IMG/VR virus record: IMGVR_UViG_3300032046_000023
Location: 1-63,380 of that record
Reading direction: 5' to 3' (one strand)
DNA length: 63,380 nucleotides
Source: a virus
Taxonomy: Duplodnaviria; Caudoviricetes
Shown here: positions 4,433-32,389 of the stretch, piece after piece
Numbering within the stretch: the stretch's first letter is position 1
Layout: the number at the start of each line of letters is the position of its first letter
The notes under the pieces: model-generated
Databases searched by the model: none
What the model was told of the DNA's origin: nothing
The model's input: the letters and a program-made list of their open reading frames with translations, nothing else
Translations under genes and position numbers: made by a program

Positions 4433-6208
4433 TCAAATATATTCTCGATTAAGCCAATCCAAATTTGTTCTACCGGGATTCGGCTGATACCAGCCTTTGT
4501 CATAGAGTGTCATCAACATATCAAAATATTCATCATACATTTTTGCTACACGCTCCAAAGTAAAATTCTTCATGGCAAACTCCCGACAATTATGGGACTT
4601 GATTTTGTCGATATTCATGGCTGCCCAAATAAATTGTTCCAAAGTTCTACACCTATAACCCGTAACTCCATGGATCACATTTTCAGCAAAGCACCCCCAG
4701 TCCGTCGTGATAACCGGAGTTCCCGAAAATCCCGCTTCAATGGATACGCCCTCGAACGGCCCAATGTATGTCGTTGGAACAAAAAGGGCTTTGGCTTCAC
4801 TCAAAAGTATCCGGCGTTTCTCCAAGTCGGCAAATCCGGCATATTCTATATAGGGGGCATCCGTATCGATGTGATCCACCGGAACGCCCTCGCGTCTCTG
4901 TCCGGCAATAATAAGTTTTCCGCCGACGGCCGAAACTACTTCCTTGGCTATATCGACGCCCTTTCTTTTAATCAATCGTCCTAGATAGAGAAAGTAATCT
5001 TTCTTCTCGGCCGAATAGGTAAAGTCGGCCGGATCAAAATAATTGGGAATGACGCAATCATAAAATAAACCATCCTCCACCGCCGTCTTCCCATAGGAAT
5101 AATGCATGAATGCATAACTCTCAAAAACTTTAAATTTAGCAAAGGTCGATGGATAACCAATTCCGGATTCAACTGTCAGACCTATATTAACCGCATCTGC
5201 GACAGCCTTCTGTCCCCACCCAAACGTGATGAGTAAGTAATCGGTATTCTGCTTTCTCTTGTTTATCTCTTGAATGGCCTTGTTGTTAAACATGGTGTAA
5301 GCAAAATCCTTACTGTCATGTTTATATTGGAATTTCTTCCAATCATAATTTCCATACGTCTTAAGAAGTATGTTTTTTGTGGAAACAGGAATAAATTCAT
5401 CGCACTCAACCGTCGATCCTTCCACACCGTAAAAATAGACTTTATGACCTGAATCCTTAAGCATTTTTCCCATCTTAAGAACTTTCTGCGAGAAGGCGCA
5501 CGCCACGGCCTCATCCTTGTTTGTCGGTAAATGGGCCAATCCCAAAAGATGAAATACTTTCTGTTTTGATCTAACTACATTTTTATTTTCCTTCACATTA
5601 TGCACGGCAATATAAGCATCGCCATAAAGGCCTTCTTCGTTATTCATATTTTTAACCGTTCCACTGAAATATTTATCCAGCCATTCTTTTGTTAATGAAA
5701 ACGGGTGCCCATCCGATATTCCGGTATTAAGCCACTCGAAAATTCTAATAATTTTTCCAATCTTCTTCGCCTTTCTCAGAATCTCGTCGGGATCAACAAC
5801 GTGTTGGAGAACGTTGTAAATCCAGACCTCGTCAAACTCCTCCAGACAAATCTCTTCGGCAAATTCAATTTTAAGTTCGACATTATGAGTCTCATATCTC
5901 TTTTTAATCCAAGCCGGGAAATTTCCCGGATCAATTACAACAGCTTTGTTAAAGTTCGTGCATTTGAGAAGTAAAGAAGTCGGACCGCCGCCGATGTCCA
6001 AAACGGATTTTCCTTTCAAATCAAATTCAAATCCCTGATTTCTATTGGGAATGACCTGCTTGAACTGATCCAGGCCCATGAACGACGCATATTTCAATTG
6101 TTTCCTTTCCTCATCATGGGTATTCACGCAATCTCCCCACCACCGTCGCTCCCATTCATTCTCTTTAACCCAATTTTCTTTGTTCACTACGAGAGACTCC
6201 TTTCTCAT
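4433..6208 (-). CDS. Class I SAM methyltransferase fused to a GT4 (GT-B) glycosyltransferase
   Basis: N-terminal VLDIGGGP and YNVLQHV; C-terminal YLGRLIKRKG and PFEGVSIEAGFSGTPVITTDWG. Confidence 0.88.
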   Translation of the reverse strand: MRKESLVVNKENWVKENEWERRWWGDCVNTHDEERKQLKYASFMGLDQFKQVIPNRNQGFEFDLKGKSVLDIGGGPTSLLLKCTNFNKAVVIDPGNFPAWIKKRYETHNVELKIEFAEEICLEEFDEVWIYNVLQHVVDPDEILRKAKKIGKIIRIFEWLNTGISDGHPFSLTKEWLDKYFSGTVKNMNNEEGLYGDAYIAVHNVKENKNVVRSKQKVFHLLGLAHLPTNKDEAVACAFSQKVLKMGKMLKDSGHKVYFYGVEGSTVECDEFIPVSTKNILLKTYGNYDWKKFQYKHDSKDFAYTMFNNKAIQEINKRKQNTDYLLITFGWGQKAVADAVNIGLTVESGIGYPSTFAKFKVFESYAFMHYSYGKTAVEDGLFYDCVIPNYFDPADFTYSAEKKDYFLYLGRLIKRKGVDIAKEVVSAVGGKLIIAGQRREGVPVDHIDTDAPYIEYAGFADLEKRRILLSEAKALFVPTTYIGPFEGVSIEAGFSGTPVITTDWGCFAENVIHGVTGYRCRTLEQFIWAAMNIDKIKSHNCREFAMKNFTLERVAKMYDEYFDMLMTLYDKGWYQPNPGRTNLDWLNREYI

Positions 6209-6210
6209 TC

Positions 6211-7101
6211 TTAACTGATATACGTAACAAGCCCGTTGTTTATTTCTATATAGGAGAAATAACCGGAAAAGTATCCAACACCGCCCAGTTCTCCGGGGTC
6301 TCCCGTATATCCCTGTAATCCTTGTGTTCCCATTTCACCCTCTTCACCCTGTAAACCCGTAGGTCCTTGCGGACCTTGCGCTCCTGTTTCACCGGGATCC
6401 CCTCCAAAACCAGTTGCACCCTGTGCCCCTTGCGGACCTTGTACGCCTTGAATTCCAGTTATTCCTTGAGCACCTTGAACTCCCGTATTTCCTTGCGGAC
6501 CTTGCGCTCCCTGAATACCCGTATATCCCTGCGGACCTTGAACCCCCGTTATGCCTTGTATTCCCTGTATACCCGTGTTTCCCTGTGTCCCCTGAGTGCC
6601 CTGGACGCCCGTATTGCCCTGTGGACCCTGTGGTCCCTGAATACCCGTATTCCCCTGCGATCCGGTAACTCCCGTTATACCCTGTGGTCCTTGGACACCT
6701 TGAATTCCAGTATTACCCTGCGGACCTTGAACCCCCGTTATACCTTGCGGGCCTCCGGGACCGGTCACGCCTGTTGCCCCGGTAGTTCCCACCGCTCCTT
6801 GAGGACCCGTTATTCCAGTCGGTCCCGCAACTCCCGTTACCCCGGTTGGGCCAATAGAACCCTGCGGACCCGTTACCCCGGTCGGGCCGACAACCCCCGT
6901 CGGGCCGGAAGGCCCTATTTCTCCCTGCGCCCCGGTGATTCCGGTCGGCCCCGTGATGCCAACCGGCCCGGTTGCCCCCTGTATTCCAGATTCCCCTTGC
7001 GGACCTATGGTACCCGTAATCCCCTGCGGTCCAGTAGGACCTTGAAGCCCCCCAATTGTCAAGGGTACCCAATCTTCACCGGTTTTAACGTAAATAGGCA
7101 T
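6211..7101 (-). CDS. Collagen-like fibre protein
   Basis: About 85 Gly-X-Y triplets; C-terminal IEINNGLVT motif. Confidence 0.88.
6795..6979. repeat. About 185-bp near-identical direct repeat, copy 2
   Basis: Matches 3800-3984 with a few mismatches. Confidence 0.85.
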
Positions 7102-7122
7102 TTAAATTCTCAATTAATTTCC

Positions 7123-8307
7123 TTATGTCAAACTCATCAAATGGATTTCCATCCTGGTACGAGATATATGACCACCATAAACATCGACGGTATTTGCTCC
7201 GGTATCAACATATGCCCAAAGTCCTATCGTATCGTTTTCCGCACATTTGAAAATTCCAGCGATTGGCAAAATAATATTTTGAGCAAGGACTGTCTGCGAT
7301 ATCGTACTCGATACGGGGACGCCATTAATATAAATATGAGCACGGTATTCCTTAGATGCTATAACGTCCTTAAAGGCAACCGATGCTGTCACGGCATAGT
7401 ATCCGGCCACGGGGCAAGTAAAGAGATGCGTTACCGTGCTAAAATTGTTACCCGGATCATCCGTCTTCGTATCTAAAAGTATAAGGGTAGGTGTGATATC
7501 GGTCAGATTATCCATCGTTGTATACAGATACACTGAACATTTTGATAGTGTTGGCAAATCTATATCATACTGAAACCAAATATCTCCACTGTCTCCACCC
7601 GAAGGTGCATTAGCAGATATGGTCATTCTAGCCCCAAACTCTAAGGCGGACATCCCGTTGTTTATGCGAACATATTTGAGATTGGCGCTCGAATATGAAC
7701 TAGGAGTATCAGTAAGACTCAAAAAGGCGCCTACTCCCGCCGCCTCAGCTCCAGGCAATCCTTCCCGATGGATCGACATGAATATTTTCGATTCCCCGCC
7801 CTGAAAAGTTGCGTCCCATCCGGTAGCATAATATTTCAATGCAATAACATCACCCACGGCACAACTCAAAACATCCCCTCCGGTAATACCCCAATATTGA
7901 TCACCGTTTGCAAAAAAGGAATTTATCTTTCCAATCTTAGTTTTTTCCGTGGCTCCGAGATAAATAGACGCCGCGACGGTTGCATTCTGATCCGCACTAT
8001 TATGACGAAAATACAATCCTGCCTGAACCACATATTTCCCGGCAACCGGACAGGTATAAACATTAGAAGCAAAGTTTCCGTTAGGATCATAACTTTCAGT
8101 GTCGAGCGTCATCGTCGTCCAGGCATCATAAGTCGGCGTAAGATCGGTCGCACGATACGCCCGCGCCGAATACTTGGAGATAACCTGCGAAACATTTTTC
8201 CAAATCGCATGAGCCTCTTTCCAGTCTTGATTGCTATGACTTTGGAGATCGGTATTTTTAGCGAATGTATTTTGACCCATTAGACTTCCTCGACCGTTAC
8301 CGAGCAT
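7123..8307 (-). CDS. Receptor-binding / fibre-head protein with two C1q/TNF-like domains (likely start 8280)
   Basis: Two copies of the gC1q signature: YDPNGNFASNVYTCPVAGKY and DPGNNFSTVTHLFTCPVAGYY. Confidence 0.75.
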   Translation of the reverse strand: MLGNGRGSLMGQNTFAKNTDLQSHSNQDWKEAHAIWKNVSQVISKYSARAYRATDLTPTYDAWTTMTLDTESYDPNGNFASNVYTCPVAGKYVVQAGLYFRHNSADQNATVAASIYLGATEKTKIGKINSFFANGDQYWGITGGDVLSCAVGDVIALKYYATGWDATFQGGESKIFMSIHREGLPGAEAAGVGAFLSLTDTPSSYSSANLKYVRINNGMSALEFGARMTISANAPSGGDSGDIWFQYDIDLPTLSKCSVYLYTTMDNLTDITPTLILLDTKTDDPGNNFSTVTHLFTCPVAGYYAVTASVAFKDVIASKEYRAHIYINGVPVSSTISQTVLAQNIILPIAGIFKCAENDTIGLWAYVDTGANTVDVYGGHISRTRMEIHLMSLT

Positions 8308-15056: not shown

Positions 15057-15410
15057 TTACTTCCGCTCCGGCTCGTTTTCGTTTTTTAGTTCTCCGGTCT
15101 CGTCTGTCCCGAATGAATTGTTAAAGGCTTCCGTGATGGCCGCCCCGACTTTCTCCATCTGCCCTTTTTCGATTGCCCCCTCAAGAAGTTCCCCCGCTTC
15201 CTTCAGCGTCAACTCCGGCTCCTCATGGATCAACCCGGCATAGAGGACGGCCCGCAATTCCTTGAGGGCCATCCTCTTTCCGAGTTTTTTTCCGAAGTTG
15301 ACGATGGGGAGATTCAAAATTTCCTCAAGCGTACAAAAGGCGTTGAAGTCATATCGGAGATGCCTGGTCCGGCCGTCCGCAAAGACAACCGGAATTGATT
15401 TGATAGGCAT
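15057..15410 (-). CDS. Tail assembly chaperone (gpG-like)
   Basis: LRYDFNAFCTLEE; lies between the tube and tape measure genes. Confidence 0.85.
   Translation of the reverse strand: MPIKSIPVVFADGRTRHLRYDFNAFCTLEEILNLPIVNFGKKLGKRMALKELRAVLYAGLIHEEPELTLKEAGELLEGAIEKGQMEKVGAAITEAFNNSFGTDETGELKNENEPERK
15081..15087 (-). promoter_or_regulatory. Programmed -1 ribosomal frameshift heptamer A AAA AAC
   Basis: In-frame XXXYYYZ heptamer; the -1 frame is open (KRKRAGAEVKDWTWRKFFNDCRDQADYM) into 14650..15003. Confidence 0.85.
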
Positions 15411-15436
15411 ATCCCTTTCCCCCTATGATTGATTTC

Positions 15437-15838
15437 TTAACTGACCGTCTGTGTGAGCGTAGAAGTACCCTGGATCGATCCGCTGAATTTGATCGCTTCC
15501 TCGAATCCGCCCGCGACTTTGATTGAGCTGAGATAACCCGATCCGGTAAAGGTTCCGCTGGAACCGGGCAGGGTCAACAAAACCGTCAGGGGAGTTGGTG
15601 TAAGTTCGGCAATATGATGTACCAGCATTTTCTGGGCGATATTGGTATAGGCAAAAAGTCCGTCAAAGTCGATGGACCATTCACGCGTTGAGGGCAGGAC
15701 TTCCCGCCATGTGTTGGAATCCCTGGAGGTTATGTCGCCTAATTTCTGGCTCATGTTCACCGTGAATGATTGACTTTCAGCAAGGGCCGAACCGTTTATG
15801 GTCAGGATCATTGTTTTTCCGAGAGCAGCAACACTCAT
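15437..15838 (-). CDS. Major tail tube protein (TP901-1-like)
   Basis: DITSRDS..WRE.LP..REWSI.FDG and F.G.GY.SS...GT..L pattern; strong AGGAG RBS. Confidence 0.88.
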   Translation of the reverse strand: MSVAALGKTMILTINGSALAESQSFTVNMSQKLGDITSRDSNTWREVLPSTREWSIDFDGLFAYTNIAQKMLVHHIAELTPTPLTVLLTLPGSSGTFTGSGYLSSIKVAGGFEEAIKFSGSIQGTSTLTQTVS

Positions 15839-15943
15839 GTAGTTTTCTCCTTTTTAAAATAGAAGGGGGCCTGAGTTGTAAAAACAGGAATTATCCCCCC
15901 TCCTGTATGCAAAAATCAGCCCGACAAACGGGCCGACACTAAC

Positions 15944-16360
15944 TTATGACGAAATAATAAATCTGAATCTTATAATTCCATGCCAGACTGAGACGGCCCC
16001 GGTATCATCCCTCACCAAGTCCGATCCTTCGAAGAAAACGGCGCTGGGCGTACCATAACCATCGAGCGTGAGCGTGGTTCCCGTTATCGCCTTAATAACT
16101 TTTTTCATCATGCCGTCGCACTCATGTTGCCAAGTGGAATCACTGAAAATATGAACGGTCAGGACATTTTCTTCAACATCATAATCCCGGTTTCCCCAGT
16201 CTGCCGAACGCCTGCCGACAAATTCACCTACATAGATATAGGGATATTCGGTAGGGGCCGTCGGGGTATAGTTATAAATGTCATATGTGTTTGTATAGGT
16301 AGACGTTGTTAGTCGGGCATAGACCGCCTTTAATATTTCCGCAAATCCAAGTTGTCTCAT
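15944..16360 (-). CDS. Tail terminator / completion protein (DUF3168-like)
   Basis: PYIYVGE...LTVHIFS...WHGIIRFRF; precedes the tube gene. Confidence 0.85.
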   Translation of the reverse strand: MRQLGFAEILKAVYARLTTSTYTNTYDIYNYTPTAPTEYPYIYVGEFVGRRSADWGNRDYDVEENVLTVHIFSDSTWQHECDGMMKKVIKAITGTTLTLDGYGTPSAVFFEGSDLVRDDTGAVSVWHGIIRFRFIISS

Positions 16361-16379
16361 TAGCGTGTTCCGTATTGTC

Positions 16380-20495: not shown

Positions 20496-21247
20496 CCTTT
20501 CTCCAGAATTTCTTTAATCAACGGTTCGGAGAAAAATAGAGACTTGCGTTTTAAATGTTCATCAAGTGTTTTCCCATCCAACATTAACTTTGTTTGCGCG
20601 GGATTATTTTCTTGAAATCGCGTCCCCCACCAGAAATGCGCAATTGTAGGTTTTCCACCTATCCAAATTTCCTCATGGTAAGCGGCGCATTGATAAATCC
20701 GGGTTCCTTTATTAAGCCGGACAACCTCATAACCAAGTGCCAGGATATCCCAGTAGGCCTGTTGCGCGGTATCGGTCTGAGTCGGAACGGCGGGGCTCGG
20801 TTGATACCGCCACGAGATATTGTGTTCGAGAATGAAATCCCGTTCGAAAAACCACAGGGGCGGGTGGAGCGGTTTTTCCACCGGGCCGACGCAGCCGATA
20901 AGTCGCGTCCGATCATTTTCATGATATAACGCAATCAGGTCTTGCGCCCACCCGGGTCGTTGAACATGAGCATCGCTGTCTAAGATACAAACATGGCGAC
21001 TCTTCGCCGTCTTCGTTCCCAAGTCCATTGCGCCGCCGTGATGAAGATCGCCCGTCGGCAATTCAATCAGATTAATATCTCGTTGATCCTTGATCCATTT
21101 TTTATTAACTTCAAGTGAATCGTTGTCGATGATGATAATTTCATAGGCGATATCCGTCGTGAACCGCCGGATACTTTTGACGAATAGTTCTATCCAATCC
21201 GGCGTATTCCGATGTGCCGTAACGATAGTAATAATAGGATTATCCAT
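20492..21247 (-). CDS. GT2-family glycosyltransferase
   Basis: IIIIDNDS, CILDSD; shares HPP.FFE..FILEH and TDTAQ.YWDI with 19719..20495. Confidence 0.85.
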   Translation of the reverse strand: MDNPIITIVTAHRNTPDWIELFVKSIRRFTTDIAYEIIIIDNDSLEVNKKWIKDQRDINLIELPTGDLHHGGAMDLGTKTAKSRHVCILDSDAHVQRPGWAQDLIALYHENDRTRLIGCVGPVEKPLHPPLWFFERDFILEHNISWRYQPSPAVPTQTDTAQQAYWDILALGYEVVRLNKGTRIYQCAAYHEEIWIGGKPTIAHFWWGTRFQENNPAQTKLMLDGKTLDEHLKRKSLFFSEPLIKEILEKG

Positions 21248-22004
21248 TTTCCGTTCTCAATATCGCTAAATGACGACGGACTTCCTCCCATCTGGGTTGT
21301 ATTTCGGGGTTCTTCCCGCGCGTGGAGATTCCCCCAAAATGTTTTACCTTTGTCCAAAAGTAATCCTTGGGAAGCGGTTTAACCATAAATCCCCATTTGT
21401 TCTCGAATAACATTTTTTCCGTGAACCGCCAGCATGTATCCAGGTTCACCGTACCGTTGAATCCTTCGGGCGGTTTGAATTCGTTAAAAATGTGTCGATA
21501 CTTATACTGCTCGACCGGTATTGATTTTTGTTGCCAGTCGTGCGGCTCCTCGATTTGTCGGTAGAGCGGCATATTAAGCAGGATAACTTCCGGTCCCCAT
21601 ATCGGAGCATACCAGGTATTGCAATGCGGCTTAGGTCCGAAATAACGGGCTGCGGCGATATCCTTGGTCTTGTCCTGAATCAATCGGAGCACGGCAGTAA
21701 GCCAATCCGGGCATATTATTTCAATGTCGCTTTCGATATGGACGACGAATTCCGTTTCTACGCGGTTTAAAAGTTGGCTCATGCTCAAGCCGGGAGCGCG
21801 TGTATAACCGTCATTCTCGATCAACTTGATATGGCCCGCGTCTCTTTGCTTTCGAAGATATTCCCGGTCCCGTCCGTCACCCAAATTATCATAGACCAGG
21901 ATTTCATAATCCACTCCGGTCGTTCTAGCCCGGACGGATTCTATGCAGAGCTGGATAGCTTCATGGCCTTGGAAGTTGGGTATCACGATTGATATTGGAT
22001 TCAT
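21240..22004 (-). CDS. GT2-family glycosyltransferase
   Basis: SIVIPNF, ILVYDN, IESD. Confidence 0.8.
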   Translation of the reverse strand: MNPISIVIPNFQGHEAIQLCIESVRARTTGVDYEILVYDNLGDGRDREYLRKQRDAGHIKLIENDGYTRAPGLSMSQLLNRVETEFVVHIESDIEIICPDWLTAVLRLIQDKTKDIAAARYFGPKPHCNTWYAPIWGPEVILLNMPLYRQIEEPHDWQQKSIPVEQYKYRHIFNEFKPPEGFNGTVNLDTCWRFTEKMLFENKWGFMVKPLPKDYFWTKVKHFGGISTRGKNPEIQPRWEEVRRHLAILRTENG

Positions 22005-22591
22005 CGTTTAATCAATAATCCCGTTCCGTATTGATAACGAAAGCAGGGATCTTCCGGGCCGACATGAGAATAGAAAGTTATGAATTCGTATTTCTCTTTT
22101 TCCTTATCAAATAAGTTCTGCCAAAATAATTTAGTTCCATCCGGGTGGGCCGGAGTGGTCAGGATGGGATGAAGGATAATGATATCTTTGACCAATGGTT
22201 CATAGATTTTAAAATAACTTGAGACCGCGCCGTAACTTTGCCCTGCGTCGAGAAACAGGAGATTAATTCCTCCGTCTGCCAACCTTTCGCAAAGCGCATT
22301 GAAAGCCTCTATTCGCAAAGCATCGCCCAAAATATCCGGCCGACTGTACTTATCGGCGATATCAATCCCGATATGTTCCGCTCCCAAATAGTCCCGATAA
22401 AACCGTTTTTGCAGATTCGACTGGATTCCGATTTCGACGACGACGGGATGATCTATTCCCCGGTTGCCGAAATAACTTTGTAAGAATTCAAACAGGTGAA
22501 GCCATTCCCCCCGCGACTGGACGGGCCAAGGCAGGCGAAAGAATTTGTCGATATCTATCATTTGGTATATTCCCATGCCTGTTTGAAACAA
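22001..22591 (-). CDS. SAM methyltransferase (Methyltransf_24-like), divergent paralogue
   Basis: VVEIG, LLFLDAGQSY; parallels the neighbouring gene. Confidence 0.7.
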   Translation of the reverse strand: MFQTGMGIYQMIDIDKFFRLPWPVQSRGEWLHLFEFLQSYFGNRGIDHPVVVEIGIQSNLQKRFYRDYLGAEHIGIDIADKYSRPDILGDALRIEAFNALCERLADGGINLLFLDAGQSYGAVSSYFKIYEPLVKDIIILHPILTTPAHPDGTKLFWQNLFDKEKEKYEFITFYSHVGPEDPCFRYQYGTGLLIKR

Positions 22592-23142
22592 AATACGGAT
22601 CGTCCGTCGGGATCATATTTAACCATAACGCCGATCCCGCACAAGAATTGTGATTTCTCGGTAGCCTCGAAGTCCATAAACTCATAATTAGGGTTGGCCG
22701 GCCGGAGTTCCGCCCAAAACTGTTTCACGTCGGGTACTACAAAAATATCATGGAAGGCTATGATATGTTTGGTCATTTGACCAAAGATTTCATAATCCTG
22801 TTTGACGCCCTCATAAGAATGGTCCCCGTCGATGAATAACAGGTCTATCGGTCTGCCCTTGAGCATTTCTACAAGTTTATTTATCGTAGTCGGAGAATAA
22901 CTATCTCCCAAGATATCCGGCTCACTAAATTGATTGCGATTATCGATTCCAATATGAGTCGCGCTTAGAAACTGCTCGTAAAATTTCTTTTGGGCATTGG
23001 TATTCACGCCGATTTCCACAACTAATGGATTTTGGATACCGTAACCGCTAAAATACGCCTGACAGAAATTAAGAAAAGTCAACCATTCATAATATGCCTG
23101 GACGGGTTGGGGCATTGCCGCAAATTGTGTTGGGTCGATCAT
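22558..23142 (-). CDS. SAM methyltransferase (Methyltransf_24-like)
   Basis: VVEIG, LFIDGDHSYEGVKQDY, IAFHD. Confidence 0.88.
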   Translation of the reverse strand: MIDPTQFAAMPQPVQAYYEWLTFLNFCQAYFSGYGIQNPLVVEIGVNTNAQKKFYEQFLSATHIGIDNRNQFSEPDILGDSYSPTTINKLVEMLKGRPIDLLFIDGDHSYEGVKQDYEIFGQMTKHIIAFHDIFVVPDVKQFWAELRPANPNYEFMDFEATEKSQFLCGIGVMVKYDPDGRSVFCFKQAWEYTK

Positions 23143-23375
23143 AAAATTATCAGTCCTAAAAATGTGCCGACGCCCGTCCCGACAGCATAGGCAATCACCA
23201 GCCGTTTATTCCAGTTCACGATTATGCGATTGAAGATGATGAAGCTGACTAAAGTAATGACCGCGCCGAGGATGGAAGCCGGGAATACAAGCCTGGATGA
23301 AATGCAGCGATAGTAGAGGGTGATGATCAAATCTATCACCATTCCCAGACTTAGATAGAGTGCCGCCCTTTTCAT
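23139..23375 (-). CDS. Small membrane protein with about 3 TM segments
   Basis: Hydrophobic; YAVGTGVGTFLG. Confidence 0.6.
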   Translation of the reverse strand: MKRAALYLSLGMVIDLIITLYYRCISSRLVFPASILGAVITLVSFIIFNRIIVNWNKRLVIAYAVGTGVGTFLGLIIL

Positions 23376-23398
23376 GCTTGCCCCTCAATGGAGGATCG

Positions 23399-24523
23399 TC
23401 ATTGTCCATGCTTATTTTCCCATTCCCCAATCTTGTCCATAATATATTGCCTGTCTTCCCTACTTAACCACCAGCCGACCGGCAGGGCGCACTGACGGGA
23501 AGAAAATTCATCGACTCCCCTTAACGGCTCCTCCGGTTTGTATGCGGCAAAGCAGGAATGGACATCGTTTCGTTTATGAACCTGGCTCACCTGGATTCCC
23601 CGCTCGTTCATAAAGGCAACGAAGCCGTCTCTGTTATCGCATTTCACGACGTAAAGCCAATACGAACTCCAGCGCGAATCATCATACTCAAGCGGCTTAA
23701 CCGATTTAATCTCTCTTTCTTTAAATTGGGTATCGTAATAGACGGCATTTTCTCTACTACGCTGGATTAGGCCGTCAACGTATTTGAGTTGTTCAATGCC
23801 GATGCAGGCTGAGACATCGTGCATATTAAATTTATATCCCCAGGATTCAATGTCATTCTCGCAACGGAAGTCCTTGCGGTTTTTGTCCTCACGCGAAATT
23901 CCATACCACCTAAGCAACTTGCCCCGCCTGTAATCCTCTTCGTTGGAACAGCAAAGTAAACCGCCGTCGACGGTCGTTAAATGTTTAATGGCCTGGAATG
24001 AGAAGCAAGTGAAGTCTCCGCCCTGCCCAATGGGTATTCCCCGGTACTCTGCTCCGAAAGCATGCGCCGCGTCTTCAATTACCCGAAGATTGAAAGCCCC
24101 GGCGATGTGTCGGATTTCATCCATGTCGCATGGATAACCGCCGTAGTGAACCGGTATAATAACCTTTGTATCCGTACTCATATTGCTGATGATACTATCC
24201 GGGTCGATATTGCCCGTCTTGGGATTAATGTCCGCCCATACGATTTTAGCCCCGGTTGCTAGGACCGGCATATTCGAGGCCGTGCAAGTCATGGCGGTGC
24301 ACATCACCTCATCCCCCGGTCCCACGTCGGCCAACCGCAAAGCGAGCTGGATTGCCGAAGTGCCTGAATTTGTAGTTAAAATATATGGATTAGCAAGTTT
24401 AACTTTAAGTTGTGCCTCAAATTCCTCGACCTTCGGACCCTGACCGATGAATCCGCCGTGGAGAACATCGAGGAGCGGCTTGTCTACGGATTCGGGAAGG
24501 TGGACCTTGAAAAGTGGAATCAT
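23399..24523 (-). CDS. DegT/DnrJ/EryC1/StrS PLP-dependent sugar aminotransferase
   Basis: NSGTSA, VHYGG.PCD, EDAAHAFGA, SFQAIKHLTTVDGG (PLP lysine). Confidence 0.93.
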   Translation of the reverse strand: MIPLFKVHLPESVDKPLLDVLHGGFIGQGPKVEEFEAQLKVKLANPYILTTNSGTSAIQLALRLADVGPGDEVMCTAMTCTASNMPVLATGAKIVWADINPKTGNIDPDSIISNMSTDTKVIIPVHYGGYPCDMDEIRHIAGAFNLRVIEDAAHAFGAEYRGIPIGQGGDFTCFSFQAIKHLTTVDGGLLCCSNEEDYRRGKLLRWYGISREDKNRKDFRCENDIESWGYKFNMHDVSACIGIEQLKYVDGLIQRSRENAVYYDTQFKEREIKSVKPLEYDDSRWSSYWLYVVKCDNRDGFVAFMNERGIQVSQVHKRNDVHSCFAAYKPEEPLRGVDEFSSRQCALPVGWWLSREDRQYIMDKIGEWENKHGQ

Positions 24524-24990
24524 TTAAAACCAAGTGCCTCATATTCACCCAAACATTTGGCAATCTCTTTCTCAATCTCACCTTCGTATGAAAAATAACT
24601 ATTGAAAAGATAATGCCTAGCCATTTGATGATATTTGCGGCCAAGTTTATCAGTACCGATGAATCCGAATTCTATACGAGGACCATATTTTACATTTGTA
24701 CCGACGACTACTGTTAAACCATCTTTTCCTTCCGGTTGACTAAGGCCATCTCCCGGTTTAGCCGGAGAATTAATTTTGCCTTCAGACATACCACTTCCAG
24801 ACCAGTTGGTATTAATACTTCCTTTTAATCGACCACTTTTGACAGGACAAACTAACTTAGCCTGTGTTTCAATTTTGAATCCACCGCGTTTTAATATATC
24901 GGAACAGGCTTTTATTTTTATAGTTTGCCACTTTTTTAGTTTGGCCAATAATTCTGGAATGCCAACAACCTTTGCTTCTACGTCTCCCAT
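24520..24990 (-). CDS. HK97 gp10-like neck protein (start at MGDVEA)
   Basis: AK..CPVKSGRLKGSI...VGTNVKYGPRIEFG. Confidence 0.85.
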   Translation of the reverse strand: MGDVEAKVVGIPELLAKLKKWQTIKIKACSDILKRGGFKIETQAKLVCPVKSGRLKGSINTNWSGSGMSEGKINSPAKPGDGLSQPEGKDGLTVVVGTNVKYGPRIEFGFIGTDKLGRKYHQMARHYLFNSYFSYEGEIEKEIAKCLGEYEALGFK

Positions 24991-25325
24991 TATGGTCTTC
25001 CTATCTCGACCACGGCAAGTTTCTGATAATTGTTCTGCCTGTCCCAGTCCTGTATCATCTTGATTTCGTAGGCCGTCGTGCCGGAATAGACCCGATCCCC
25101 TTCTCGGATATCGGACAGGTATTCGATGAAAACATAGAAGTTGGCCCATACGCTGAGTTTGTCATGTAAATAATTCGCCTCCCTTGAAGACAAGGCATTG
25201 AATCTGCATTTAACCCCGCTATGCAACGCGGCCCATGTCGTCGTACCGGCCGCGCCGGAGGCCGGGGCGGTATCCGTCCGCCGTTTTATATCTATCGTCG
25301 TGTTAAGCAAATTACGCAGGCTCAT
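24990..25325 (-). CDS. Head closure (stopper) protein
   Basis: DIREGDRV...YEIK; position after the connector gene. Confidence 0.75.
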   Translation of the reverse strand: MSLRNLLNTTIDIKRRTDTAPASGAAGTTTWAALHSGVKCRFNALSSREANYLHDKLSVWANFYVFIEYLSDIREGDRVYSGTTAYEIKMIQDWDRQNNYQKLAVVEIGRP

Positions 25326-25759
25326 TATTCTTGTCCGTTCTAATCCAGGTATTATTTGACGGCAATTTGTCCCCGCAATAGGGACAATGTTCTAAAATAT
25401 CGATCATGCCGCATAATCTTTTAAGCCGCCGCCGCCCTTTCCCTTCGTTACAAATTACAATTACATAGGCATCATAAAAATCGTCATATGCGATATAGCC
25501 GTTTAAAATTGCATCCAAAAATGGGGTATAAATTTCATCGTCCTCGGGGTCTTTAAATTGACAATTATGTTTCATCAGTTTCCTTTGCTTCACGGACTTC
25601 ATAATCCTTGCAATCGATGACGCACCCGCTGTCCCGATTTTCTGCTTTTGCCTTCTCTACAATCGCCGTCATCCATTTTGAACACGCTACCAGGTCTTCC
25701 AGAAAACACCAACTCACATATTTAGGATCGTTTCCGCTCCGGTATTCGACGATGACCAT
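25312..25759 (-). CDS. Two small inserted hypothetical ORFs (25312..25602, 25565..25759)
   Basis: Coupled ORFs between connector and stopper genes; CPYC in one. Confidence 0.5.
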
Positions 25760-26613
25760 TAGATTAGAATCCTACGGAAGAGGTTGATCTCCTCGATTAG
25801 ATCGGGGGGTAAGGCGTTTTTAAAATCGGCGGTTGTATATCCATAGTCGCCCAAATTCTCCGAGCGCAAAGTAGGATCTTGTTTTGATTTATGGTATTTA
25901 TAGGCCGCCAAGGTTAGGCAGGCATCCTCTAGGGCATATGGAACGCTTGTCACTCCGCCGGTATAATCGACAAATATTTCCGTTCCCGTCGGGAATCCCG
26001 CCGAGTAATAAATTATCCCCGCATTCCTGGCTTCGCTGGGATTCAAAAGGTGGTAATCGTTTAATTCATCATCAGGCATTTCCGCGTAGGCGAGCTCGGG
26101 CGATTTGCAGGATAGACCGGGTCGGATTAAAAGCTCGCTGGATTTCTTCGCCCCTATGGTTGAGTCCGAAATCGTGGCCGTCCATCCTAAACCCGCCACG
26201 GCATTGATGGCATTTTTAAGTAAAGTGATCGTGGCATAACCGGCAAAGGTAAGTGCCGGTGTCGTCACTTCTGTTCCATCGGCATTCAGCGTCACCCCGG
26301 TAGCCGTGACTTCAAACGTGGCCCAAGTTGTCGCCCCCGTATTCGTAACGGAAAAGGCATTTGTCCGGCCTATTGAGATTCGACTTACTTTGGTGACGGG
26401 GTACTGGTCCAACTCAAGATACTGAGAACCGTTGCCCCAGTAAATTTCCTTCGTATAACTTCGCGTTTTGAGTTTGCGATTGCAGTATCGCTCGATATAA
26501 TCCGTTGCCCTATCCAGGTATCGTTCAAGCAGGTTGTCTTCATCGTCACCCGTTATGACTAGGTATTCCTTCAGGGCCGCCCTGGTCGCCAAAGCATAAG
26601 TATCAAGACTCAT
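25759..26613 (-). CDS. Head-tail connector (HK97 gp6 / SPP1 gp15-like) with an internal insertion domain
   Basis: LKEYL...D.LL..Y...A..YIERYCNR and Y.GG...VP.AL..A...SENLGDYGY. Confidence 0.85.
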   Translation of the reverse strand: MSLDTYALATRAALKEYLVITGDDEDNLLERYLDRATDYIERYCNRKLKTRSYTKEIYWGNGSQYLELDQYPVTKVSRISIGRTNAFSVTNTGATTWATFEVTATGVTLNADGTEVTTPALTFAGYATITLLKNAINAVAGLGWTATISDSTIGAKKSSELLIRPGLSCKSPELAYAEMPDDELNDYHLLNPSEARNAGIIYYSAGFPTGTEIFVDYTGGVTSVPYALEDACLTLAAYKYHKSKQDPTLRSENLGDYGYTTADFKNALPPDLIEEINLFRRILI

Positions 26614-26896
26614 CTTGCACCACCTTTACACAGTAGACATCCTCGAAAATATAAAGTGCCGAAGTCGTGACCTTGAAAACAACGTGATATTCCGAACCTG
26701 CCGTTCCCCCGCTCACGACCTGAGAGACGGTATCCGTTCCTATCACGGCGGCACTGCCTTCCGGAGTTAAGCCGGTATCGACCGTCGCCGTGACGGAATC
26801 GATATGCTCACCGGTTGCGATGTCCGGCGTGGTATATTTAAATCCGATGGCAAATTTCTCATTCGGACGTTTTTCGATAATTGCAGTTGTAGACAT
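26603..26896 (-). CDS. Small virion adaptor / fibre-associated protein
   Basis: KRP.E...GE.I.SV...VSGGTAG.Y.V.F..TTS pattern. Confidence 0.6.
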   Translation of the reverse strand: MSTTAIIEKRPNEKFAIGFKYTTPDIATGEHIDSVTATVDTGLTPEGSAAVIGTDTVSQVVSGGTAGSEYHVVFKVTTSALYIFEDVYCVKVVQDES

Positions 26897-26926: not shown

Positions 26927-28438
26927 TTAGGTACGGCCCGAAGATTGGATTCGATCCCTAGCCGTGGTCGCCTGAATTCGGTCCCTGGCATTAGCCGATT
27001 GGATACGGGTCCGGCCTATGGCACTATGAATGACCGGCCAAGTCGCCTGGATCATCCCGAGTACGGCGGCGTCGGAAAATTGTCCTTGATATCCTTCGGC
27101 GGCTATAAGCGAATGAGCCTGCGTTAAAACCGGCGAATCGGACGCCTGATCTTGAACGTTCTCTGCGGCAACGAGAAATATTCCGGTTATAGTTATAGTC
27201 GTTTCATCGGATACCTGTTCCTGGACTCCCTCGGCTGGTGCGAGTACATGAATTTGAGTCAGGGCAGGCACATCGGACGTCTGATCCTGGACGCCCTCCG
27301 CCGCCTCCAGGTTAATTCCGCCCACAACTAAAACAGGTTCATCGGATACTTGATCCTGTGCGCCTTCTTGAGCCGCCAGAACATGAGTTTGGGTCAGCGC
27401 CGGTGTATCCGATATTTGTTCCTGGTAATCTTCGGCGGGTACTAAAACATGGACCTGAGTGAGCGCGGGAGAGTCGGATACCTGTTCCTGAGCCCCTTCC
27501 TGGACGGCAAGTGCATGGGCTTGGGTGAGCGCGGGCGTATCGGATACTTGGACTTGTGCGCCTTCATCCGCCGTGAGTATATGGGCCTGTGTCAAAGCCG
27601 GGGAATCGGATACCTGGACTTGTACGTCTTCATCTACGGCTAAGACATGGACTTGGGTCAAGGCGGGGACATCTGAAATCTGTTCTTGAACACCCTCGGC
27701 TGGTGTGAGTATATGGAGTTGGGTTAAAGTCGGGGAGTCGGATAATTCCGTCTGCATCCCTTCTTCGGCGGCAAGAATATGCGCCTGCGTCAATACGGGA
27801 GAATCGCTGGCTTGCTCTTGCACCCCCTCTGCCGAAACTAAGGTATGGACTTGAGTCAATGCCGGGGCATCAGAGCCTTGAGTTTGTACTCCCTCGGCAG
27901 TGACAAGATTATGGACTTGGGTCAGCGCCGGGGTGTCCGCCGCCTGTTCCTGCATCCCCTCCGCCGGAACGAGATCAATGGCGCCGCCCGACTCCACATA
28001 GGCCCGTATCTGATATTGATTATTATTCGTCCCGTCCGGTGTCCCGTAGGGATTCGGCATTGAAGCATGAGATACGGCTTTCCAAGCATGGGAATCTGCC
28101 GCCTGACCGCTTAGATAATAATAAACATCACCGGAATCGGAGTTAAATGCCAACCAATAATAAAGGTCGGCAGTTACCGCCAAACTCAAACCTTGAATAA
28201 CGCACCATCCGGCGTCGACGGCAACCTCTCCGGCATCCAACAGCAATGCGCCCGGACTTCCCGAACTATCCGCATAAACTCCGAGCCGGACGTTCCCATA
28301 GCCGCTTTCTTGGCAATTTACTTCGAGTTTTGTAAGCGTTCCCGTTCCAACAGTATTTTGAAGCCTAAGCCCTTGGTTTACATTCGCGGAAGAACCGGCT
28401 TGGTTGTTATTTGTGAGAACGCCAAAATAGCCGCTCAT
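26927..28438 (-). CDS. Head/neck fibre-like protein with 14 x about 22-aa repeats
   Basis: N-terminal beta domain, then L.AEG.QEQ.SD.PALTQ.H repeats. Confidence 0.75.
   Translation of the reverse strand: MSGYFGVLTNNNQAGSSANVNQGLRLQNTVGTGTLTKLEVNCQESGYGNVRLGVYADSSGSPGALLLDAGEVAVDAGWCVIQGLSLAVTADLYYWLAFNSDSGDVYYYLSGQAADSHAWKAVSHASMPNPYGTPDGTNNNQYQIRAYVESGGAIDLVPAEGMQEQAADTPALTQVHNLVTAEGVQTQGSDAPALTQVHTLVSAEGVQEQASDSPVLTQAHILAAEEGMQTELSDSPTLTQLHILTPAEGVQEQISDVPALTQVHVLAVDEDVQVQVSDSPALTQAHILTADEGAQVQVSDTPALTQAHALAVQEGAQEQVSDSPALTQVHVLVPAEDYQEQISDTPALTQTHVLAAQEGAQDQVSDEPVLVVGGINLEAAEGVQDQTSDVPALTQIHVLAPAEGVQEQVSDETTITITGIFLVAAENVQDQASDSPVLTQAHSLIAAEGYQGQFSDAAVLGMIQATWPVIHSAIGRTRIQSANARDRIQATTARDRIQSSGRT
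27046..27976 (-). repeat. 66-bp coding tandem repeat, 14 units
   Basis: Counted from the translation. Confidence 0.85.
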
Positions 28439-28453: not shown

Positions 28454-28852
28454 TTACTCGATCATCCCGTCTTTTGCGATGAGTTGGCAGACGTAAACCC
28501 TATTCGATTCGAGTGCCGCCGTGTTGATCGTCAGCGTCGCCGTCTCGCCGGGATTTACCGGATTCTTTGAGAACGAATATGACCCCACAGGCAGACCGCT
28601 CACTTCGTACACGATCAGTGCATCAAATCCACCGCTCACCGTATTCATCAGCGTGATCGTCCCCGTCTCGCCCTTGTTCAATGTGAGCGTCGCGGGTGTG
28701 AGTGTCACCGCGAAATCGCCGGTCACGTTGACCGTCACCGTGAACTGGTACTGGTGTTCAATCGACGGCTTATGGGCGATGATCCGGGCAAGGGCGAATC
28801 CCAAGCCTACGAACAGCACCGCCGCCAGAATCCAGACCCAAAGTTTCTTCAT
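28454..28852 (-). CDS. Membrane-anchored Ig-like protein
   Basis: N-terminal TM segment; GDF...P.TLT...G....T...SGLP.G...NPGET.TLTI. Confidence 0.65.
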   Translation of the reverse strand: MKKLWVWILAAVLFVGLGFALARIIAHKPSIEHQYQFTVTVNVTGDFAVTLTPATLTLNKGETGTITLMNTVSGGFDALIVYEVSGLPVGSYSFSKNPVNPGETATLTINTAALESNRVYVCQLIAKDGMIE

Positions 28853-29461: not shown

Positions 29462-29635
29462 CTATTTGTTCACAGAATCCGTTACCATCTTATTTTTCGT
29501 CGGCGCGTCTACGGCCTTGCCGGCGATTTTCGCCTTTCCTTCCTCGATCATTATTTGGGCAAACCCGTCCGTGGCCGTCATTCTTTGTCCCTTCCGACAA
29601 CAACAGAAGTCCATGATGAATTCGATTTCAATCAT
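29462..29635 (-). CDS. Small capsid-downstream protein (start MIEIEF)
   Basis: G.A...VDAPTKNKM motif typical of small genes following a major capsid gene; overlaps the GT stop region. Confidence 0.5.
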   Translation of the reverse strand: MIEIEFIMDFCCCRKGQRMTATDGFAQIMIEEGKAKIAGKAVDAPTKNKMVTDSVNK

Positions 29636-30785: not shown

Positions 30786-30787
30786 GG

Positions 30788-31033
30788 TTAATCATCGACT
30801 ATTTCACAATGTTCCCAATCCAGGTCTTTGACATGTTCTTCGCCGAATTGTTTTGCTATGAACTCTTTTGCCCATTCTAATTTTGCCGCTTCGGAAATCA
30901 TGTCTTCTCCGCGTGGGTGTTTAAATTCAAATCTTTCTTCGACAAGTTTTCCGAGATCATCTTGAAGTTTCACATAATGGCCGCAACATCCCGTATCGCA
31001 TCCGTATAAACCATGATAAACAATGATTTTCAT
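30788..31033 (-). CDS. Hypothetical protein with GCDTGCCGH motif
   Basis: Cys cluster; translationally coupled. Confidence 0.55.
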   Translation of the reverse strand: MKIIVYHGLYGCDTGCCGHYVKLQDDLGKLVEERFEFKHPRGEDMISEAAKLEWAKEFIAKQFGEEHVKDLDWEHCEIVDD

Positions 31034-31131
31034 TATCGTTTTTTGGATAATTTATATATGATCCAATTGATCCCATAAATTATTTTCACGATTGGAATGA
31101 ATAAAATTTCCAGGAATCTTTGCATAGTCAT
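31033..31131 (-). CDS. 32-aa hydrophobic micropeptide
   Basis: MTMQRFLEILFIPIVKIIYGINWIIYKLSKKR, with RBS; below the ORF-track cutoff. Confidence 0.55.
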   Translation of the reverse strand: MTMQRFLEILFIPIVKIIYGINWIIYKLSKKR

Positions 31132-31138
31132 CTTTCCC

Positions 31139-31231
31139 TTATCTCTTTTTTGATAATTTTGATATTAACCAATTATAACCACGCCACAATAAATAGATCG
31201 GAATTAATAGAATTCTTAAAAGTCTTTGCAT
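31139..31231 (-). CDS. 30-aa hydrophobic micropeptide (paralogue of the previous one)
   Basis: MQRLLRILLIPIYLLWRGYNWLISKLSKKR. Confidence 0.55.
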   Translation of the reverse strand: MQRLLRILLIPIYLLWRGYNWLISKLSKKR

Positions 31232-31237
31232 GGTTTT

Positions 31238-32389
31238 TTACTTCCTGAGTCTTCTCTCCAGGTTTTCCATTATCGGTATCCAATACTTAGGCCATACCGT
31301 ATCCCAATCGTATTCAAGTACACCCTGCCTAGCCTCGGCTTTCATCTCCGCATAATCCGGCTCGTTCCAGGCCAGCCAAGCCTCCTCGAGTTTCGAGGCT
31401 ATATCAATCGGGCTGGGGTTCGCATACCACGTGCTCGTTATCGTCCCCCATTGCAGATTGTCTTCACCCGCCGGAATAAGCCAACCCGTTTTAACCAACT
31501 CGGGACATGATGTGCAATTCGTCGCTATCACGGGAACGCTGCAAGCTTGGGCTTCCAATATCGGCAAACAGAAACTCTCCCCTTTCGTCGGCAAACAGAA
31601 AATATCAAAAGCATTATAAATCCTTCGCAAATCATCAACCGGAAGTCTGCCTAAAAAGTAATCCATCTGGTTCGGCCAGCCGATCAAGCCGTCCAATTCC
31701 AGCGAGTGAGCGATAAGCGCGTAGTTGTGCCGGGGATATATCCCCCGCTCGTTGGCAAAGGTGCAAATGAAAAGCCGAGCCTCGTTATGTTCGGCATGGA
31801 ACCGCTTGAACGCCTGCATGAGCGGGATGAATCCTTTAACGTCGTCCGGGTAGTTGACCCCCAGCGAACCTATAACGAAATTTTCGGAAGTCCAACCCGT
31901 ATCCGTCCGCAATTCCAACCCGGCACTTTCATCCGGCCTGAAATTATGAGTGTTCAAACCATGCGGAGCATACAGACAATCGTAACCTTCCCGCCGTATC
32001 TGTTCACAACCGAAGGCGGTCATGGCAATTTGGATCCCCGTATTCTTCATTACTTTCTTCATCGCATAGGGCATCTCATTCGTATTCGTCGGGGCATAGG
32101 CAACCCATTTCTTTTTAGGAAACGGGGTTTTGCCCCATAAATCCCACAACTCGCAGAAGGTTATGACATAATCGAAATCTTCATCCTCGATCATCCGATT
32201 GAGGAAATGGAGGTCCGTACCGAGTACGATTTCGAGTCCGTCCGGCGTAACCTCATGCTTTAAATATTCGTGTTTCGTGGCGACTCGAACGAAATGTCCG
32301 GCTTGTTGCAACCGCTTGACGATTTCCTTGGTAACGATTCCATAAGCGGTCCGTACTTCGGGCGATGAACTATACCAGAGGATTCTCAT
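31238..32389 (-). CDS. GT4-family glycosyltransferase
   Basis: MRILWYSSSP..TAYG, GESFCLPILEAQACSVP; paralogue of 29628..30785. Confidence 0.9.
   Translation of the reverse strand: MRILWYSSSPEVRTAYGIVTKEIVKRLQQAGHFVRVATKHEYLKHEVTPDGLEIVLGTDLHFLNRMIEDEDFDYVITFCELWDLWGKTPFPKKKWVAYAPTNTNEMPYAMKKVMKNTGIQIAMTAFGCEQIRREGYDCLYAPHGLNTHNFRPDESAGLELRTDTGWTSENFVIGSLGVNYPDDVKGFIPLMQAFKRFHAEHNEARLFICTFANERGIYPRHNYALIAHSLELDGLIGWPNQMDYFLGRLPVDDLRRIYNAFDIFCLPTKGESFCLPILEAQACSVPVIATNCTSCPELVKTGWLIPAGEDNLQWGTITSTWYANPSPIDIASKLEEAWLAWNEPDYAEMKAEARQGVLEYDWDTVWPKYWIPIMENLERRLRK

Follow-up and report, generated by a model that had tools for sequence, protein, structure and literature searches.

Sugar-enzyme genes at three sites of the late operon of a temperate siphovirus: a candidate system for virion glycosylation

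Three stations of sugar enzymes in the late operon

IMG/VR record IMGVR_UViG_3300032046_000023 (Duplodnaviria; Caudoviricetes) represents a tailed virus in which genes for glycosyltransferases (GTs) and other sugar-modifying enzymes are interspersed with virion genes at three sites, here denoted stations 1 to 3. The window that we analysed is the entire record, 63,380 bp in length, with a CheckV completeness of 100%. Nearly all genes are encoded on the minus strand, and Pfam and PHROG scans delineate a siphovirus late operon of standard layout that, in addition to the features listed in Table 1, encompasses genes for a head-tail adaptor, a head completion protein, chaperones and a tape measure protein. 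The phage is temperate, as judged from the presence of genes for an integrase, a CI-like helix-turn-helix (HTH) protein and a CII-like protein. No tRNA genes were found in the window. DNA contigs from four other sediment metagenomes contain this phage or close variants and are silent on the timing of expression.

The sugar genes, which total 12,024 bp (19% of the genome), encode nine GT domains, two methyltransferases along with a degenerate methyltransferase paralogue, a DegT-family aminotransferase, a LicD domain and a cytidylyltransferase, as determined by comparison with Pfam, PHROGs and NCBIfam. The matches above the Pfam gathering score include DegT (299.5 bits), Glycos_transf_2 (131 bits), CTP_transf_like (61.1 bits), Glyco_trans_1_4 (44.6-64.3 bits) and LicD (34.1 bits). 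A first-pass annotation, made from the sequence alone, had named the same nine GT domains, DegT, LicD and cytidylyltransferase, and all of these were recovered on the minus strand where it had placed them; of the three methyltransferase domains in its list, two are intact, and the third is the degenerate paralogue, in which the DGDH motif is replaced by DAGQ. No hydrophobic segments were detected in any of the GTs, the methyltransferases or the DegT protein. The G+C content at third codon positions (GC3) of the station 1 and station 2 genes is 0.47-0.59, matching the core structural genes (0.55-0.60), and therefore these genes are not recent foreign inserts. The sugar-enzyme cluster is real and is more than a product of chance.

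Station 1 follows, in the gene order, the genes for two major capsid proteins (MCP1 and MCP2) and for a 143-aa protein that has no family match in Pfam, PHROGs or NCBIfam and whose homologues come after MCP2 in relatives as well. It consists of two paralogous GT4 genes with a gene for an 81-aa Cys-rich protein between them, the latter also without a match in any of the three databases. Among proteins of solved structure, the station-1 GT4 profile matches the chlorovirus GT B736L best (E 5e-15, covering profile positions 1-293 of 384).

Station 2 is an 8,144-bp block (16380-24523) between the genes for a gp10-like neck protein and the tail terminator. In HK97, the gp10-family gene adjoins the terminator gene, so that this block splits a normally adjacent gene pair, as the first-pass annotation had proposed. 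The closest matches of the DegT protein in the Protein Data Bank (PDB) are 4zwv/4xau and CalS13. The block ends with a fusion of five domains. Its cytidylyltransferase part has as nearest PDB relatives TagD and the cytidylyltransferases for ethanolamine phosphate and choline phosphate, that is, activators of small phospho-alcohols, and its LicD part matches the fukutin-related protein FKRP. Between the DegT and methyltransferase genes lies a 78-aa open reading frame (ORF) with three hydrophobic segments, for which no family scored above the cut-off (the weak match to DUF5698, E 1.7e-4, is below it).

Station 3 is a gene for a methyltransferase-GT4 (MT-GT4) fusion protein that lies 2 and 12 nt from its neighbours, between two genes for collagen-repeat fibres. 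The family alignment of MT-GT4 includes an S-adenosylmethionine (SAM) motif with the consensus VLDIGGGP. A stretch of 227 nt recurs in both collagen genes, with 88% identity, and the pair thus brackets MT-GT4 and a gene for a 97-aa protein (hyp97). Together, the collagen genes encode 189 G-X-Y triplets, with Thr accounting for 37% and Gln for 34% of the Y residues. A 394-aa fibre protein encoded nearby, separate from the collagen proteins, shows weak matches to BclA_C (E 0.002) and C1q (E 0.004), below the curated cut-offs. GC3 drops to 0.31-0.44 in the distal fibre module (2544-8307), which looks to have been acquired as a unit.

The linkage of the sugar genes to the virion genes differs among the stations. 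The overlap between the gp10-like and DegT genes amounts to 4 nt and those of the GT2 genes to 4-8 nt, and the fusion gene is 19 nt away from the terminator gene; across stations 2 and 3, the overlaps are 4-8 nt and the gaps to structural neighbours 0-19 nt. At station 1 the coupling is loose, with gaps of 348 (upstream of the first GT4 gene, 1a), 204 and 349 nt. The description of the sugar genes as mostly translationally coupled thus holds for stations 2 and 3 and fails for station 1.

Table 1. Coordinates of the virion genes and sugar genes in the window, from high to low positions
Feature	Position	Strand	Match or remark
Large terminase	42792-44303	minus	followed by portal, MuF and protease genes
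MCP1, major capsid protein, 437 aa	34226-35539	minus	Pfam Phage_capsid, E 1.5e-43
MCP2, major capsid protein, 341 aa	33188-34213	minus	Pfam Phage_capsid, E 7.1e-28
143-aa protein behind the capsid pair	32738-33169	minus	possible decoration protein
Station 1a GT4, 383 aa	31238-32389	minus	Glyco_trans_1_4, E 1.8e-17; phrog_2170, E 1.2e-34
Cys-rich protein, 81 aa	30788-31033	minus	2 nt before 1b
Station 1b GT4, 385 aa	29628-30785	minus	paralogue of 1a, 42% identical
gp10-like neck protein	24520-25149	minus	Pfam HK97-gp10_like, E 1.1e-05; phrog_5; upstream border of station 2
DegT-family sugar aminotransferase, 374 aa	23399-24523	minus	Pfam DegT_DnrJ_EryC1, E 4.9e-89
ORF with three hydrophobic segments, 78 aa	23139-23375	minus	overlaps the methyltransferase gene by 4 nt
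Methyltransf_24 methyltransferase, 194 aa	22558-23142	minus	Pfam, E 9.7e-07, 30.1 bits (cut-off 26.3)
Methyltransferase paralogue, 196 aa	22001-22591	minus	BLASTP 39% identity, E 3e-43; no Pfam match of its own
Three GT2 genes, 254, 251 and 258 aa	19719-22004	minus	Glycos_transf_2, E 5.5e-09, 3.9e-12 and 6.6e-15
Fusion protein, 1112 aa	16380-19718	minus	GT2 1-230, GT2 263-527, LicD 534-700, cytidylyltransferase 713-845, GT2 862-1112 (Pfam, NCBIfam)
Tail terminator	15944-16360	minus	phrog_176, E 1.3e-17; downstream border of station 2
Tail tube	15437-15838	minus	phrog_1407, E 1.5e-22
FN3 protein, 1039 aa			late operon
Collagen-repeat fibre, 296 aa	6211-7101	minus	Pfam Collagen, E 1e-40
MT-GT4 fusion (station 3), 591 aa	4433-6208	minus	phrog_3603, E 2e-47; phrog_3408, E 7e-105
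Collagen-repeat fibre, 343 aa	3087-4118	minus	Pfam Collagen, E 1.3e-40
Amidase	2004-2420		
Integrase	279-1385	plus	

Recurrence and genomic context of the stations

Relatives of the phage were collected as 16 IMG/VR loci by the capsid protein and 31 more by an alignment of the second GT2 domain of the fusion protein; the complete relatives, with terminal repeats, are G001 (60 kb), G006 (57 kb), G007 (53 kb) and G008 (49 kb). Searches started from single proteins yielded no relatives with the terminator as the query and four distant loci with the gp10-like protein. The nearest capsid matches in genome collections are short contigs binned to differing phyla, and the more distant, single-capsid relatives are Streptomyces-type prophages and contigs from Chloroflexota metagenome-assembled genomes (MAGs).

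Sugar genes are located directly behind the gp10-like gene in 4 of the 4 complete relatives, or in 5 of 5 genomes of the clade when the window is included. The block reaches the tail terminator gene in G001, G006 and G007 and was followed up to the end of the locus in G008. Among the 31 loci collected with the second GT2 domain, 21 abut a terminator homologue (with the tube and chaperone genes next), 10 have gp10 followed by GTs, 6 show both borders, and 6 (L267, L269-L271, L273 and L274) either are too short or lie in a different context, these counts not being independent because of the near-duplicates L255/L257, L259/L260 and L262-L265. The gene content of the slot varies. It comprises a rhamnosyltransferase-like protein, a GT2, four uncharacterized proteins, a GT1-like protein and a GT2-GT2 fusion in G001; a GT2, a Methyltransf_24 methyltransferase, a radical SAM protein, LicD and two fusions in G006; a GT2 and a GT2-LicD-cytidylyltransferase-GT2 fusion in G007; and DegT, a GNAT acetyltransferase, a methyltransferase, four GT2 genes and a triple-GT2 fusion in L255. 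The blocks of L252 and L016 include an NDP-sugar 4,6-dehydratase, and a DegT copy with 62% identity to that of the window is found behind gp10 in L017. In relatives, genes for homologous fusions border on the terminator gene, some including the LicD-cytidylyltransferase part and some lacking it. Thus, the slot dates back to the ancestor of the clade, and its gene cargo has been shuffled. This result bears out, for station 2, the synteny that the first-pass annotation had suggested examining, with the same slot but differing content in all complete relatives and in most of the related loci.

Outside this slot, the individual genes have varied contexts. DegT homologues in six other viral loci share no common structural context, and the only homologue of the 78-aa membrane ORF among the collected loci (37% identical, in L010) is encoded between portal and MuF, away from sugar genes. 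A further sugar-gene site is located between the MuF/portal and protease genes in L026-L028 (G001 37656-41910), L164 and L278; that of G001 contains two methyltransferases, a GT2, a B12-radical SAM enzyme and a polysaccharide deacetylase. GT and methyltransferase genes also lie between portal/MuF and protease in the cultured Synechococcus phage S-CBS4.

Station 1 has a patchier distribution within the clade and a wide one outside it. A GT4 homologue with 47-55% identity is encoded behind the capsid genes or the 143-aa protein in seven relatives (L006, L007, L011-L014 and L029) and is absent from L008, L009, L010, L016, L017, L019 and L030. The station-1 GT4 family is present in at least 593 viral stretches in IMG/VR. 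We examined the context of 79 loci, reduced to 50 clusters at 70% identity with one representative each, by assigning to PHROGs the 98 ORFs of at least 230 aa that end within 3 kb upstream of the GT4. A major-head-protein PHROG occurs in this interval in 31 of the 50 representatives, 8 of which come from the clade of the window; the head proteins belong to at least six families (phrog_10, 212, 283, 1357, 544/267 and 2263). In another 6 representatives, portal, protease or head-morphogenesis genes and an unassigned ORF of about 280 aa are located upstream; of the rest, one has only a terminase (TerL), nine lack a head-module gene and three contain too little upstream DNA. We infer that a gene picked at random from a phage of 40-60 kb would fall in this post-capsid position only a few percent of the time. 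Two cultured phages show the same type of arrangement, namely capsid, small protein, GT and adaptor in the Microcystis phage Mae-JY09, and capsid, GT1, methyltransferase, GT2 and neck in the Pontimonas phage phiPsal1. Accordingly, the synteny expected for station 1 is seen in two of the four complete relatives (G001 and G006) and, beyond the clade, behind unrelated capsid genes.

The station-3 GT4 family includes 2,429 proteins at E <=1e-10 among the 8,000 scored and is present in at least 592 viral stretches; MT-GT4 as a single query sequence matched one locus, and alignments were used instead. We searched for collagen-like runs, defined as at least 8 co-oriented G-X-Y triplets within 6 kb of the GT4, and found them in 37 of 81 loci of this family compared with 3 of 51 control loci whose total length was the same (Fisher p 5e-7), part of which enrichment could reflect a shared preference for variable fibre modules because the controls were unmatched for tail-fibre regions. 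The runs in the controls are limited to 8-9 triplets. After clustering at 80% identity, 13 of the 29 clusters have a run and 11 have one of at least 20 triplets (Fisher p 3e-6, clustered counts). The distance between the GT4 and the run is often 50-600 nt, and Thr is the most common Y residue in all 19 runs examined (36-93%). In Synechococcus phage ACG-2014f, a T4-like cyanomyovirus, the adjacent gp018 and gp019 correspond, as separate proteins, to the two halves of MT-GT4, to which they are about 45% identical, and the gene order is collagen protein, hypothetical protein, methyltransferase-like protein, GT4, 2-oxoglutarate (2OG) oxygenase and tail fibre. Hence the link to collagen recurs in unrelated viruses. 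A pairing of collagen-like proteins and glycosyltransferases in phage tail fibres is not described in the literature passages that we examined on this topic.

Several other features of the head region deserve mention. MCP1 and MCP2 are tandem paralogues of the HK97 fold, 42% identical, with MCP2 lacking roughly the first 80 residues of MCP1, and the pair is kept across the clade (IMG/VR and MAG contigs). It could be a split into hexon and penton proteins like that of T4 gp23 and gp24, which is unusual in a siphovirus. A gene at 26927-28438, located between the genes for head decoration and the adaptor, encodes a protein of 503 aa in which a 22-aa unit is repeated in tandem about 14 times (consensus near AEGVQEQVSDSPALTQVHVL; TRF period 66 nt) and which resembles unnamed viral clusters only. 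A contig from run X2 skips 295 nt in this gene, with 31 letters between both sides, indicating that the number of repeats varies between samples. The repeat protein may be a head or neck fibre and, as such, a candidate glycan acceptor. The X2 contig also joins position 31034 to 31255, and the spacer between the GT4 genes (31034-31237) that it lacks is therefore an insertion/deletion polymorphism; this spacer, 204 nt with 27% GC, contains two paralogous mini-ORFs (30 and 32 aa) with hydrophobic cores. A 132-aa Ig-like protein (28454-28852) has an N-terminal hydrophobic anchor or signal, an odd feature for a virion protein, and a Gp77-like protein is encoded at 26603-26896. In two relatives without the capsid-linked GT4 (L016 8945-11767 and L019 5557-8088), Gp80-like fibre and beta-helix proteins are encoded between the capsid and adaptor genes, which suggests that head- or neck-attached fibres occur in the clade. 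A YopX and HNH-YopX pair of low GC content (36-40%) at 38272-39328, between MuF and the protease, is probably a homing-endonuclease insert. In the early region (45904-52447), we identified a PnuC-like fragment (82 aa), a metallophosphoesterase, an RlaP-like nucleotidyltransferase and a radical SAM protein.

Virion, host envelope or DNA as the target

Virion glycosylation by phage-encoded enzymes has precedents in mycobacteriophages. Passages of two papers credit Freeman et al. 2023 with the identification of glycosylated proteins in Che8, Corndog and Myrna and describe a cluster O cassette, an O-methyltransferase with three GTs, that modifies capsid and tail-tube proteins (PMC12363180, PMC11600133); mycobacteriophage virion glycosylation is also covered in parts of PMC12619734 and PMC11256854. 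In the Corndog record, a methyltransferase and three GTs (gp35-38) are encoded inside the head block, between portal-region genes and the major head gene, so that GT cassettes within head operons are already known from this phage; in Che8, the three GT genes (gp108-110) are at the right end of the genome. The phage analysed here resembles both in encoding soluble GTs together with a methyltransferase and resembles Corndog in the location of such genes within the head-gene block. It differs in having nine GT domains rather than three, in the additional DegT, LicD and cytidylyltransferase, in the distribution over three sites instead of one, and in the involvement of collagen-like fibres, and its host is not demonstrated to be actinobacterial.

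A looser parallel is found in Bacillus spores, where the exosporium protein BclA, a G-P-T collagen-like protein, is O-glycosylated on its repeats. Similarly, the window contains G-X-T collagen repeats beside a glycosylation gene, with enzymes for amino-sugar formation and methylation elsewhere in the genome; unlike BclA, the repeats belong to a phage tail fibre, and the weak BclA_C match is on a separate protein. Serotype-converting prophages carry modules of the GtrA/GtrB/Gtr type, or TarP, as an independent unit beside attP. Our phage shares with them temperate life and GT genes but has neither GtrA nor a membrane GT, its sugar genes are coupled to structural genes, and their number is far larger. 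The chloroviruses, in which the capsid is glycosylated by cytoplasmic virus-encoded GTs (PBCV-1 A64R and A111/114R; NY-2A B736L), likewise have multi-domain enzymes and GT-methyltransferase fusions, according to PMC4691112 and PMC7826918; these are giant viruses of eukaryotes with N-linked glycans, and the similarity to the window is distant. Even for B736L, a role in capsid glycan synthesis is proposed, with the acceptor unconfirmed, in a passage of PMC4691112.

Considering these parallels together with the genomic contexts described above, the system is best read as phage virion glycosylation in a large form, which is spread over three sites and includes a hypervariable glycan island found throughout the clade. 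We lean, with modest confidence, towards the enzymes glycosylating the phage's own virion proteins late in infection, before lysis; the timing, the acceptors and the glycan chemistry are predictions. Nucleotide sugars of the host would be used directly or tailored first: judging from its family, DegT would convert an NDP-4-keto sugar to an amino-deoxy sugar, which the methyltransferases would then methylate. The soluble GT2 and GT4 enzymes could build a glycan stepwise on Ser or Thr residues of assembled or assembling proteins. The cytidylyltransferase is predicted to convert a small phospho-alcohol, of the glycerol, ethanolamine or choline phosphate type, to a CDP-ester, from which the fused LicD may transfer the activated phospho-alcohol as a phosphodiester substituent. 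The GT4 pair would likely act on capsid or decoration proteins, MT-GT4 on the Thr residues in G-X-T triplets of the collagen-like fibres, and the island on a neck, tail or capsid protein; the island is a clade-wide slot with gene content shuffled as in bacterial surface-glycan loci. The proposal of the first-pass annotation that each station lies beside its substrate finds partial support: it agrees with the associations of stations 1 and 3 and sits less well with G001, S-CBS4 and Corndog, which have such genes between portal/MuF and protease.

A number of observations weigh against glycosylation of the virion. The station-1 GT4 is missing from G007 and G008, two of the four complete relatives, and an MT-GT4 homologue from all four. 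The recurrence of GT genes behind capsid or fibre genes could mark permissive insertion sites rather than function. Homology to the Che8 and Corndog enzymes is undetectable (BLASTP E 0.5 and 5.6; the best, E 0.002, spans 62 aa of Corndog gp37), and the 10 phage records retrieved by tblastn with the station-1 GT4 include none from Mycobacterium; the window therefore resembles those phages in mechanism and placement and not in enzyme family. The look-up of RNA runs for positions 15401-25400 of the window listed no run with the sequence. The 78-aa membrane ORF in station 2, the anchored Ig-like protein in the head region and the temperate life of the phage point in the same direction, as does the fact that soluble GT2 and GT4 enzymes, LicD and TagD-like enzymes are typical of teichoic-acid and lipopolysaccharide (LPS) pathways that act on lipid-linked intermediates. 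Furthermore, passages of two papers on aquatic phages read similar genes as modifying the host O-chain or DNA (PMC7029224, PMC10202952). A Ser residue at the C-terminus was considered as a signature of the acceptor and dropped, given that the capsid and tube proteins of HK97, with no GT in the stretch seen, end in -GS and -IS. In the clade, MCP1 ends in -TS in 28 of the 28 loci listed, MCP2 ends in Ser in all but L174, and all 18 tail-tube sequences have a C-terminal Ser; the capsid and tube of Che8 end in -GS, and 15 of 31 capsid-like ORFs beside the GT4 family end in Ser. The GT-less single-capsid relatives mostly end in -RA, with about 5 of 31 ending in Ser by hand count. Glycosylation at the C-termini of capsid and tube is reported for mycobacteriophages in part of PMC12619734.

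The same enzymes might instead remodel an envelope glycan of the host, such as teichoic acid, the LPS O-chain or another wall polysaccharide, by way of lipid-linked intermediates, priming and export provided by the host, either in lysogens from internal promoters, resulting in serotype conversion or superinfection exclusion, or late, preventing the re-adsorption of progeny to debris. LicD and a TagD-like cytidylyltransferase are hallmark enzymes of teichoic-acid and phosphocholine metabolism, and soluble GT2 and GT4 enzymes commonly act on undecaprenyl-linked acceptors. The temperate life of the phage and the small membrane ORF inside station 2 speak for such a role, promoters could be located in the 204-349 nt gaps that flank the station-1 genes, and MT-GT4 is located 3 kb from the integrase; this is also the usual published interpretation of such genes (passages of PMC7029224 and PMC12801897). 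Modification of the host envelope is thus a serious rival; nevertheless, we consider it rather unlikely. Six-frame family searches of the window detected no Bac_transf (PF02397) or WecA-type (PF00953) priming transferase, GtrA (PF04138) or Wzx flippase (PF01943), and none for thymidylate synthase (PF00303), although each search matched 8 to 13 of 14 control genomes (10 of 14 for PF00303). A polymerase and a membrane-bound GT are lacking in the window as well; priming and flipping could be supplied by the host. Nine GT domains far exceed the known conversion modules, and station 2 is coupled by overlaps to neck and tail genes. The L010 homologue of the membrane ORF is remote from any sugar gene, and the company that the two GT4 families keep with six capsid families or with collagen-like genes across unrelated viruses would be left unexplained. 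Consensus scans for promoters and terminators gave counts at chance level (31 found against 28.2 expected; 22 against 21.2), which thus neither support nor exclude internal promoters and lend nothing to expression in lysogens. The first-pass annotation had taken the lack of GtrA, a flippase and multi-spanning GTs as an argument against serotype conversion: the absences are upheld by the six-frame searches and by the lack of hydrophobic segments in the GTs, and the argument is weakened by the 78-aa membrane ORF, which had been overlooked, and by the temperate life of the phage.

Phage DNA is a far less plausible substrate. GT-B enzymes of phages with the same broad fold do glycosylate DNA, and a Rhizobium phage GT for which DNA glucosylation is proposed, in a table of PMC13326640, shares its best structural matches, 7fg9 and 8x3q, with the MT-GT4 family. 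Base hypermodification as a means to evade restriction is, however, very improbable here: the six-frame searches revealed no hydroxylase or hydroxymethylase of the thymidylate-synthase type, neither a nucleotide kinase nor a DNA polymerase family is among the matches of the 34 ORFs scanned outside the structural region, and the sugar genes belong to the structural operon and not to a replication module. Moreover, a set of DegT, LicD, cytidylyltransferase and nine GT domains is unlike the DNA-modification sets described in passages of PMC13326640.

Finally, the stations might serve different targets, for example with MT-GT4 and the capsid-linked GT4 enzymes modifying the virion and the island producing a soluble or host-directed glycan or representing a selfish cassette at a permissive site. 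The evolutionary depths of the stations do differ, station 2 being clade-wide, station 1 patchy and station 3 unique, with a lower GC3; associations with an acceptor across lineages were found for stations 1 and 3 only, and relatives keep additional sugar genes between MuF and protease. We find such a division of targets improbable, since the retention of the slot in 5 of 5 complete genomes, the intact reading frames and the native codon composition argue for a selected function tied to the particle, and the window encodes no machinery for the export of a free glycan. Under glycosylation of the virion, a more specific and tentative possibility, which we hold somewhat doubtful, is that the island is a virion "serotype" locus in which cassettes for complex glycans are swapped among temperate sediment siphoviruses, the two GT4 families being portable modules linked to their acceptors, the capsid in one case and Thr-rich collagen in the other.

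Implications for phage surfaces

To our knowledge, chemical proof of phage virion glycosylation is confined to a few mycobacteriophages, where the modification alters antibody recognition. If the reading that we favour is true, environmental phages would build coats of far greater complexity, assembled by nine transferase domains and including an amino sugar, methyl groups and a phosphodiester, and would diversify them at a dedicated genomic slot, much like bacterial O-antigens. On the more doubtful reading of the island as a serotype locus, its amino-sugar-containing, methylated and phosphodiester-bearing glycans would be teichoic-acid-like and would differ from phage to phage, the collagen-linked GT4 family would be common to siphoviruses and T4-like cyanophages, and virion glycosylation would be widespread among environmental phages instead of being confined to actinophages. 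GT genes near phage structural genes, now routinely interpreted as modifying the host surface or DNA, would need re-annotation under the favoured reading, and the associations of GT4 with capsid and with collagen genes amount to testable predictions of the acceptors in the cultured phages Mae-JY09, S-CBS4 and ACG-2014f. Such diversification would imply selection on the phage surface itself, for instance by capsid-sensing host defences, proteases, adhesion or grazers.

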